Shown in pieces: positions 7,327-8,560 of a DNA stretch of 10,193 bases. The notes under the pieces were generated by a model. That model was not told the DNA's origin and did no database searches. It worked only from the letters and a program-made list of their open reading frames with translations. A program made the position numbers and the translations under genes. The stretch is from the NCBI GenBank assembly GCA_016840425.1, contig JAEOSI010000062.1:1-10193 (forward strand). The letters run 5' to 3'. This DNA comes from Candidatus Wukongarchaeum yapensis. GTDB taxonomy: Archaea > Asgardarchaeota > Wukongarchaeia > Wukongarchaeales > Wukongarchaeaceae. Each line of letters starts with the position of its first letter. Position 1 is the stretch's first letter.

Positions 7327-7914
7327 CTATTTTAGAAGTTCTTTAAATTTTGGCGGTTCTTCTTCACCTTCATATATGACGATCATTTGGGGCACGAATT
7401 TTCTCTCAGAATCAAGTTTTCGTCCGATACGACCTGCTTCAAACTTTTCCATAGAGCTAGCGTTGCGACCGATCCATACGTAGATGTTCAAACCCGAATC
7501 TAACACTAGCGCGGAATCACTGTTTAGAGATTCTCTCGAAAGCTCAACCTCTTCGAATTCTTCATGACCTATCGCCCGATAAAGCTTTGGCTTAAACTCT
7601 TCTATCCCTCCTTCTACGGTTTTTAAAAATCCTGGCGTTCCTCCAGACTTCACTTTTGGGGCACCGCCAAGCAACTCTATCAACTCTTCAGGCTCTTCGT
7701 TTTGTTCACAAGTAATAACGTGGGGGTAATCCTTTCGCTCCATATCCATCTTATTAGACAACCAAGCAGCCGTAAACTTTTCATCTATTGTAGACTCTTT
7801 GCCTCGCCATATGAAAATCGTTATTCCTGCATCAACCACATATACGTCGCCTTCATAAAATTCTGCTTCACTGATTTCTTCCAATTCACCGCCTTTTACA
7901 TGGAATATCTTCAC
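7327..7914 (-). CDS. Two-domain gelsolin-like protein (Asgard 2DGel type), paralogue A
   Basis: Domain 1 FYEGDVYVVD...IFIWRGKESTIDEKFTAA...MD...EQNEEP aligns by eye to gelsolin G1 (FFTGDAY...YWLGNECSQDESGAAA...LD...VQGFES). Linker KVKSGGTPGFLKTV resembles KYKKGGVASGFKHV. Domain 2 PKLYR...SLNSDSALVLD...IYVWIG...EKF...EGEEEPPKF resembles G2. GTG start with a GAGGCGG SD. Confidence 0.9.
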   Translation of the reverse strand: MKIFHVKGGELEEISEAEFYEGDVYVVDAGITIFIWRGKESTIDEKFTAAWLSNKMDMERKDYPHVITCEQNEEPEELIELLGGAPKVKSGGTPGFLKTVEGGIEEFKPKLYRAIGHEEFEEVELSRESLNSDSALVLDSGLNIYVWIGRNASSMEKFEAGRIGRKLDSERKFVPQMIVIYEGEEEPPKFKELLK

Positions 7915-7972
7915 AAAAAACCGCCTCTTAAAAAGAAACTTCCAAAAAATCGCTATATACAGACAGCTTTCC

Positions 7973-8560
7973 TTAACCTAAGAGCTCTTTAAATTTCGGC
8001 GACTCATCTTCGCCCTCGTGTATAACGATTACTTGAGGTGTAAATTTTCTCTCAGAATCAAGCTTCCGCCCGATACGACCTGCCTCAAACTTTTCCATAG
8101 CACTAGCACCAGAACCGATCCAAACATAGATGTTTAAACCATCGTCTAAAACAAAAGCATCATCACTGACTAAACTTGACCTTGCAAGGGGCACTTCCTC
8201 ATAGTTTTCAGGACCTATCGCCTTGTAAAGCTTTGGCTTAAACACTTCTTTCTCCACTTCTACATGTACTAAGAGCCCGGGGGTCCCTCCAGGCTTCACT
8301 TTTGGAGCACCACCAAGCAAATCTAACAACTCTTGCGGTTCGTCACCTTGAGTACACGCAACAACCTTGGGGTACCCACGTCTGTCCATATCTAGCTTGT
8401 TACTGAGCCAAGCACCTACGAATTTTTCATCAACAGTGCAATCTTTGCCTCGCCATATGAAAATTCGCATTCCATCGTCTACGACATATACATCGCCTTC
8501 GTAAAATTCTGCTTCACTAACTTCTTCTAAGTCGTCTTTAACAACATGGTATAGTTTCAT
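7973..8560 (-). CDS. Two-domain gelsolin-like protein (Asgard 2DGel type), paralogue B
   Basis: Same length as paralogue A and aligns without gaps; 139/195 identical by hand count (about 71%). Same gelsolin repeat motifs. ATG start with a GGAGTGG SD. Confidence 0.9.
   Translation of the reverse strand: MKLYHVVKDDLEEVSEAEFYEGDVYVVDDGMRIFIWRGKDCTVDEKFVGAWLSNKLDMDRRGYPKVVACTQGDEPQELLDLLGGAPKVKPGGTPGLLVHVEVEKEVFKPKLYKAIGPENYEEVPLARSSLVSDDAFVLDDGLNIYVWIGSGASAMEKFEAGRIGRKLDSERKFTPQVIVIHEGEDESPKFKELLG

Follow-up and report, generated by a model that had tools for sequence, protein, structure and literature searches.

Tandem two-domain gelsolins of an Asgard archaeon differ at a predicted calcium ligand of domain 2

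Two adjacent genes of Candidatus Wukongarchaeum yapensis encode two-domain gelsolins (2DGels), here called paralogues A and B, that differ at one predicted Ca2+ ligand. Residue 134, in the column of human gelsolin Asp187, is Asp in B and Ser in A. By analogy with human gelsolin, the explanation that we favour, with moderate confidence, is that Ser134 weakens or abolishes the type-II Ca2+ site of domain 2 in A, and that a calcium response would be kept via domain 1. The window, i.e. the whole stretch of DNA that was analysed, comprises 10,193 nucleotides.

A tandem pair of two-domain gelsolins

The genes, the spacer between them and the linker motifs of the encoded proteins are located in the window as follows.

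7327–7914, minus strand: paralogue A, a 2DGel of 195 amino acids with a GTG start (open reading frame and translation, Pfam, AlphaFold2, Foldseek).
7915–7972, minus strand: B–A spacer of 58 nt, with an oligo-T run and a TATATA box; a GAGG precedes the GTG of A by 9 nt (sequence inspection).
7973–8560, minus strand: paralogue B, a canonical two-domain gelsolin of 195 amino acids with an ATG start (open reading frame, Pfam, phmmer).
7615–7629 in A (FLKTV) and 8261–8275 in B (LLVHV), minus strand: WH2-like linker motif, residues 96–100.

The two proteins are 71% identical across 195 residues with zero gaps. Pfam identifies two gelsolin repeats (PF00626) in each of them, with E-values of 5.6e-28 for A and 1.3e-24 for B. 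With phmmer, B was matched to the full-length gelsolins of human and horse (E about 1e-40, summed over four matched stretches) and to the two-domain proteins 7c2g and 7c2h (Thor 2DGel3), 7whf (Heim) and 7whg (Loki), with E-values ranging from 7e-28, for 7c2g, to 3e-25. The same solved 2DGel entries were returned by hmmsearch with a profile of 26 archaeal 2DGels. The AlphaFold2 model of A, which was built from an alignment of 26 archaeal relatives and carries no ions, has a mean pLDDT of 85.7 and consists of two confident strand-helix-strand gelsolin domains, with disorder in linker residues 98–103. Its top five PDB matches in Foldseek are 7c2g, 7c2h, 7whf (two chains) and 7whg (E 4e-20 to 8e-18). 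Between domains 1 and 2, both A and B contain a WH2-like motif of the form L-x-x-V/T; the linker motifs described for other 2DGels are LRRV (Thor), LKHV (Heim) and LVDV (Loki) (PMC9433394).

By their sequences, A and B belong to the known Asgard 2DGel family, whose members sever, cap and sequester actin under the control of calcium, and similar activity is predicted for both of them. The GTG start of A is kept across orthologues, and the related contig L037 has almost the same spacer. The functions of the spacer elements are putative, the GAGG upstream of A being Shine-Dalgarno-like.

Calcium ligands of the two paralogues

The residues predicted to bind Ca2+ are encoded at the following positions, with the equivalent residues of human gelsolin.

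7513–7515, minus strand: codon 134 of A, TCC (Ser), in the gelsolin Asp187 column.
8159–8161, minus strand: codon 134 of B, GAT (Asp), the canonical type-II ligand.
7516–7518 in A and 8162–8164 in B, minus strand: Asp133, in the gelsolin Gly186 column, expected to be a main-chain carbonyl ligand.
7447–7449 in A and 8093–8095 in B, minus strand: Glu156 (gelsolin Glu209), on the long helix, the partner ligand of the type-II site, kept.
7411–7413 in A and 8057–8059 in B, minus strand: Asp168, the type-I signature Asp of domain 2, kept.
7846–7851 in A and 8492–8497 in B, minus strand: Gly22-Asp23, type-II residues of domain 1 (gelsolin Gly65-Asp66).
7780–7782 in A and 8426–8428 in B, minus strand: Glu45, type-II Glu of domain 1 (gelsolin Glu97).
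7744–7746 in A and 8390–8392 in B, minus strand: Asp57, type-I Asp of domain 1 (gelsolin Asp109).

Around residue 134, A reads SLNSDSALVLD and B reads SLVSDDAFVLD, and the Asp side-chain ligand of the domain-2 type-II site is thus absent in A and present in B. Both proteins have Gly22-Asp23, Glu45, Asp57, Asp133, Glu156 and Asp168 in common, and the type-I and type-II signature residues of domain 1 are complete in each. An earlier, sequence-only reading of this DNA had given the same codons and peptides, and had stated that Glu156 and the four domain-1 residues are kept in both copies; all of this agrees with what we find.

The same reading had placed residue 134 in the column of human Asp187, and this assignment is borne out in several ways. 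The phmmer alignment sets 'sslvsDDafvld' of B over 'esfnnGDcfild' of gelsolin. The aligned gelsolin Asp is residue 214 of the 782-residue precursor chain 3ffn_A, which becomes 187 after subtraction of the 27-residue signal peptide. This offset also moves RRVVRA (195–200) to 168–173, which is the furin site 168-RRVVR/A-173 (PMC5025852). The register is the same in a search with the profile of 26 archaeal 2DGels, and the two HMMER searches agree on it against G1-G2 and G4-G5 of gelsolin. The mapping of the ligands is based on the alignments with human and horse gelsolin, and on the statement in PMC9433394 that 2DGels conserve the signature residues; a type-I signature in domain 2 is also described there for Asgard 2DGels.

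An artefact of alignment or assembly, such that residue 134 of A would not be the equivalent of Asp187, is extremely improbable. It is refuted by the gapless alignment of A with B, by the identical register in two independent HMMER searches and by the recurrence of the same codon in independent assemblies, and nothing was found in its favour.

Origin and conservation of Ser134

A maximum-likelihood tree built from 32 archaeal 2DGels groups all B copies, also those from genomes without A, in one clade, and the A clade is its sister (support 100/99 and 99/96). This topology implies that the duplication predates the genus. The gene order B-A-GGR, GGR being a geranylgeranyl-reductase-type gene, was found in the window and in contigs L036–L041. 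A same-genus genome (G001, locus L007) and two metagenome contigs (L042 and L043) have B next to GGR without A, and since the duplication is older than these lineages, A has been lost in them. Asp occupies column 134 in P0006 and L008, the closest outgroups, which belong to the same order; together with the sister position of the A clade to all B copies, this indicates that Ser134 is derived on the A stem.

The change from Asp to Ser at codon 134 (GAY to TCN) takes two nucleotide steps. In a collection of 15 billion proteins, Ser134 was found in nine of nine distinct A-type protein alleles, which come from independent assemblies, and Asp134 in 13 of 13 B-type alleles, so that the difference between the paralogues cannot be attributed to chance or sequencing error. 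Asp23, Glu45, Asp57, Glu156 and Asp168 are invariant among these A-type and B-type alleles.

Paralogue A evolves faster than B. Between the window and L037, dN and dS are 0.080 and 0.316 for A (ratio 0.25) and 0.010 and 0.080 for B (ratio 0.12), and tip branches measure 0.06–0.07 in A versus 0–0.05 in B. The dN/dS of about 0.25 between A haplotypes nevertheless identifies A as a constrained, working gene and not a pseudogene. These rates bear on the proposal that Ser134 arose by neutral drift in a dispensable duplicate, which would be under relaxed constraint and heading for loss, and that it has no adaptive meaning. The faster evolution of A would fit such drift, as would its absence from three B-GGR loci and the fact that D134S is only one of 33 fixed differences between A and B. 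However, dN/dS is 0.2–0.27 in all segments of A, which points to continued purifying selection. The reading frame, the GTG, the GAGG and all other Ca2+ ligands are moreover conserved across two deep A haplotypes, and sequences resembling A turn up in the metagenomes of several studies, from sediment, marsh and mangrove. We therefore consider drift towards loss a quite unlikely account of Ser134.

Two deep haplotypes in domain 2 of paralogue A

A part of A that includes codon 134 was found to exist in two strongly diverged forms.

7375–7578, minus strand: hyperdivergent core of domain 2 of A, codons 113–180, with two deep haplotypes (dS/dN comparison).

Between the window and L037, the dS of A is 4–7 times that of its neighbours (0.045 for GGR, 0.062 for a membrane protein and 0.080 for B). 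This excess is confined to codons 113–180, where the A haplotypes differ with a dS of 0.89 and a dN of 0.19, compared to a dS of 0.03–0.09 in B and the flanking genes. In this segment they differ from each other almost as much as either differs from B. The haplotypes do not differ in codons 181–195, and in domain 1 they differ by just 5%. Both haplotypes are present in one marsh metagenome, with flanks that otherwise match.

Of the 67 sites that distinguish the A haplotypes, the second haplotype (the L037/P0004 type) has the B state at 34, synonymous sites included. Simple gene conversion from B was rejected as its full origin, as the tract is only about 78% identical to B and conversion would also have had to skip codons 131 and 134. 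Asn131 and Ser134 are common to both A haplotypes, codon 134 being TCT in the second. Introgression of a divergent A allele, or an old polymorphism, may account for the second haplotype. As Ser134 is carried by both haplotypes despite a dS of 0.89, it is old relative to their split; its presence in both is only weak evidence for selection, since about two thirds of the residues in the segment are shared anyway.

Residue 134 in other gelsolin-type proteins

To place the Ser of A among related proteins, 503 matched stretches (covering one or both domains) from an exhaustive profile search and from genome loci were aligned to the A/B profile. Column 134 is Asp in 417 of them, followed by Ser (22), Asn (13), Glu (11), Gly (9) and a small number of other residues. 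A alleles account for nine of the stretches with Ser; among the remaining 13 is L031, a divergent 2DGel paralogue from another Asgard family (f6, genome G026), which is also without Gly22 and Glu156. Nine further Ser carriers were checked with Pfam and are all of eukaryotic size (744–1729 amino acids): seven have a villin headpiece, two of these also leucine-rich repeats, and the remaining two have PH domains.

The 26 other 2DGels from 40 sampled Asgard genomes have Asp (18), Asn (4), Glu (3) or Ser (1) in this column. The four Asn cases make up two tandem 2DGel pairs of family f16 (L021 and L025), which have Arg at the type-I column too, and Glu occurs in families f13 and f18. With about 30% of the other sampled Asgard 2DGels lacking Asp here, the difference between A and B is less singular than the sequence-only reading had implied. 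Particular to A and B is the contrast within one genome, with one copy fully canonical in its predicted ligands and the other changed at a single one. The type-II Asp of domain 1 is Asp in all 26 of these proteins. The predicted type-II ligand of domain 2 is thus the changeable one in the family, and A would be one of several independent departures. Invariance in domain 1 and variation in domain 2 fit a role of domain 1 as core switch, with domain 2 possibly adjustable.

Column 133 is highly variable, with D, G, N, E, S, K, R or H in different members of the family. This variability fits a ligand through the main chain, and Asp133 in A does not look compensating, since B has Asp133 too. Changes of a core calcium ligand are found repeatedly in the gelsolin superfamily; in the literature searched, they are uncharacterised in Asgard archaea.

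Expected consequences for calcium control

In human gelsolin, Asp187 binds the calcium ion of G2 through its side chain, and the substitutions D187N and D187Y abolish Ca2+ binding: 1 mM Ca2+ raises the melting temperature of wild-type G2 by 19 C and that of D187N by 0 C (PMC5025852). In human G2, even the near-isosteric Asn thus leaves no stabilisation by Ca2+. Since Ser is uncharged too, and shorter than Asn, it is most likely that the type-II site of A has been removed or strongly weakened. The analogy would hold within limits, as human G2 has an extra ligand, Asp259, and different neighbours around the site; Asp259 comes from the G2-G3 linker and is absent from two-domain proteins. The human variants of Finnish-type amyloidosis (G2 and its variants: 1KCQ, 6QBF and 6JEH; PMC5025852) involve the same column and, as in A, the replacement of Asp by an uncharged residue. 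They are pathogenic in that they destabilise G2 and expose the furin site, whereas Ser134 of A is a fixed, natural state in a protein under purifying selection.

We propose the following sequence of events. After an old duplication, A would have exchanged the sole side-chain Asp ligand of the domain-2 type-II site for Ser, with retention of Glu156, of the domain-2 type-I residue Asp168 and of both domain-1 sites, while B kept the full set of signature ligands. The domain-2 type-II site of A would then bind Ca2+ much more weakly, or not at physiological levels, and domain 2 would no longer be stabilised, or positioned on actin, by calcium. As the domain-1 type-I and type-II sites are intact, A as a whole should still respond to calcium through them, and full calcium independence is not expected. 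The cell would in this way have one canonical 2DGel, and one with either a changed calcium threshold or a second domain that is uncoupled from calcium.

A different possibility is that the domain-2 type-II site of A keeps its Ca2+ stoichiometry, through the hydroxyl of Ser134, a water molecule held by Ser134 or the side chain of Asp133, so that at most a modest shift in affinity with little functional effect would result. In EF-hand loops, Ca2+ is known to be liganded by the hydroxyls of Ser and Thr. The pocket around residue 134 is also well preserved, as Glu156, Asp133 and Asp168 are kept in every A allele and the surrounding strand, S-L-x-S-D-x-A-x-V-L-D, is otherwise conserved; the kept Glu156 and Asp168 could mean that the domain-2 pocket is still used. 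Ser is furthermore the second commonest residue at column 134 across gelsolin repeats and could be tolerated in a working site. These points have to be weighed against the loss of Ca2+ stabilisation in human G2 with Asn, which offers a carbonyl oxygen at equal reach (PMC5025852), since the side chain of Ser is one carbon shorter and uncharged. Asp133, moreover, is not new in A, B having it as well, and its column tolerates Gly, Lys, Arg and His. Retention of a working site is possible in our view, but doubtful.

Loss or weakening of the site, with calcium control kept via domain 1, agrees in part with the sequence-only reading, according to which A has lost or retuned Ca2+ control of domain 2. 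The position of the residue in the Asp187 column, the derived and fixed state of Ser134 and the constraint on A all speak for that part of the claim. Its extension to a partly Ca2+-independent actin regulator goes too far, given the retention of the domain-1 sites and Asp168 in A and the finding that a Loki construct of domain 1 only stays calcium regulated (PMC9433394). A functional difference between A and B need not come from residue 134 alone, as the linker motif (LKTV versus LVHV) and 31 other fixed positions also differ. To our knowledge, the role of the domain-2 type-II site in the regulation of 2DGels has not been separated experimentally from that of the other sites.

Comparison with known gelsolins

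Among two-domain proteins of solved structure, the Thorarchaeota (Thor) proteins 2DGel and 2DGel3 (7C2G and 7C2H; Akil et al. 2020, PMC7444086) come closest in sequence (E 7e-28); they are also the top matches by fold (E 4e-20). Like A and B, they consist of about 200 residues in two domains, with a WH2-like linker motif and no C-terminal extension, and B carries the signature ligands for the three calcium sites that are shared with human G1-G2. They are, however, only 33–36% identical to the proteins described here. The three Thor proteins that have been studied come from three different assemblies, whereas A and B are tandem copies in one genome.

The Heimdallarchaeota (Heim) and Lokiarchaeota (Loki) 2DGels (7WHF and 7WHG; Akil et al. 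2022, PMC9433394) have the same two-domain core, with type-I and type-II residues in both domains, as in B, and their regulation of actin is strictly calcium controlled. Unlike A and B, they carry a C-terminal tail or a Zn domain, and they have additional calcium sites specific to their lineages. Variation in calcium sites between lineages has thus been noted before, but as the gain of extra sites between phyla; the loss of a core ligand between paralogues of the same genome is not described there (PMC9433394). All solved structures of Asgard 2DGels (Thor, Heim and Loki) show an occupied type-II site in domain 2, and the activities of these proteins are calcium controlled (PMC7444086; PMC9433394); every crystallised 2DGel has the type-II Asp in domain 2, where A has Ser.

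The villin-type Ser repeats are single repeats inside proteins of three to six domains, whereas A and B are whole-gene, two-domain paralogues in an archaeon. From the aligned repeats, loss of the type-II Asp in particular repeats is an established pattern of the superfamily. In the tandem pairs of family f16, both copies have Asn134, so that there is no contrast between Asp and another residue, and in the Ser-containing paralogue L031 several other ligands are missing as well.

Domain-specific tuning of calcium sensitivity is a hallmark of the multi-domain gelsolins and villins of eukaryotes. A more far-reaching proposal is that A and B divide the labour, B being fully calcium-gated and domain 2 of A being freed from calcium control, and that such domain-specific tuning was thus reached by duplication of a whole gene at the two-domain stage, before eukaryogenesis. 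We regard this proposal as speculative and rather unlikely to hold in full. Besides the fixed Ser134, it would take in the classic WH2-like motif LKTV of A and the core of domain 2, of which natural populations keep two deeply diverged haplotypes.

The 2DGels assayed so far are canonical, fully liganded proteins from different organisms. Paralogues A and B offer a natural single-ligand experiment within one Asgard genome, from a lineage close to eukaryotes, in which the part of the domain-2 type-II site in calcium control can be asked about directly. The outcome bears on whether calcium tuning at the level of paralogues predates the three- and six-domain gelsolins; it would refine rather than overturn the current picture, since loss of a ligand in a single repeat is already common in the gelsolin superfamily.

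Genomic context

In one run of an RNA library, two short contigs were found that match positions 7640–7848 in A (93% alike), thus not reaching codon 134, and positions 8105–8374 in B (97% alike); carry-over of DNA is possible in this library. The same genome (2.16 Mb, 92% complete) encodes an actin, detected at 445 bits, as well as actin-related proteins. Only one further gelsolin-type gene was identified in it, on contig C148, which encodes a single-domain protein of 87 residues with Lys at the Glu156 column.

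Evolution of the A and B paralogues

The duplication that produced the tandem two-domain gelsolin (2DGel) genes A and B is older, according to the tree, than the split of the lineages in which B directly adjoins the geranylgeranyl-reductase-type (GGR) gene, without A. This arrangement was found in a genome of the same genus (L007) and in two metagenome contigs (L042 and L043). Since the duplication predates these lineages, A has been lost at least once in relatives.

L007, 1501-3443: B-GGR locus without A
L042, 4001-5881: B-GGR locus without A
L043: B-GGR locus without A

Where A is retained, its domain-2 core occurs as two deeply diverged haplotypes, as seen when the window is compared with contig L037.

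Window 7375-7578, minus strand: domain-2 core of A, codons 113-180

Between the haplotypes, dS is 0.89 and dN 0.19 in this segment; elsewhere in A, and in B and the GGR and membrane-protein genes, the same two strains differ by a dS of only 0.03-0.13. A single marsh metagenome contains both haplotypes. They may have arisen by introgression, as an old balanced polymorphism, or through patchy conversion from B.

The paralogues also have unlike WH2-like linker motifs, each fixed in its own clade; FLKTV of A resembles the classic form LKKT.

Window 7615-7629, minus strand: WH2-like linker motif of A, FLKTV
Window 8261-8275, minus strand: WH2-like linker motif of B, LLVHV

Calcium-ligand columns in other gelsolin-type proteins

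Changes at calcium-ligand columns were also identified in other Asgard 2DGels, and in the only gelsolin-type gene of the genome besides A and B.

G020:C134, 461-1701 (L021): tandem 2DGel pair, family f16
G040:C4, 987329-988568 (L025): tandem 2DGel pair, family f16
G026:C40, 77146-77706 (L031): divergent 2DGel paralogue, family f6
Contig C148, 999-1262 (L005): single-domain, ProGel-like gelsolin-type gene, 87 residues

Both copies of the f16 pairs have Arg at the domain-2 type-I column and Asn at the column of human gelsolin Asp187 (column 134), the same residue as in the human amyloidosis variant D187N. The f6 paralogue shares Ser at this column with A and has also lost Gly22 and the Glu156 position; its calcium sites appear degenerate. 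In the 87-residue protein, the Asp187 column is occupied by Glu and the Glu209 column by Lys, so that this protein probably binds no calcium.

Spacer and transcription

Window 7915-7972: 58-nt spacer between B and A

This spacer contains an oligo-T run just past the B stop codon, a TATATA box about 40 nt upstream of the GTG start of A, and GAGG 9 nt upstream of that start. These elements, and the almost identical spacer of L037, suggest a possible separate promoter for A. Transcription of relatives of both genes is weakly hinted at by two short contigs in a metatranscriptomic library labelled leaf litter, one 93% alike to part of A (window 7640-7848) and the other 97% alike to part of B (window 8105-8374).
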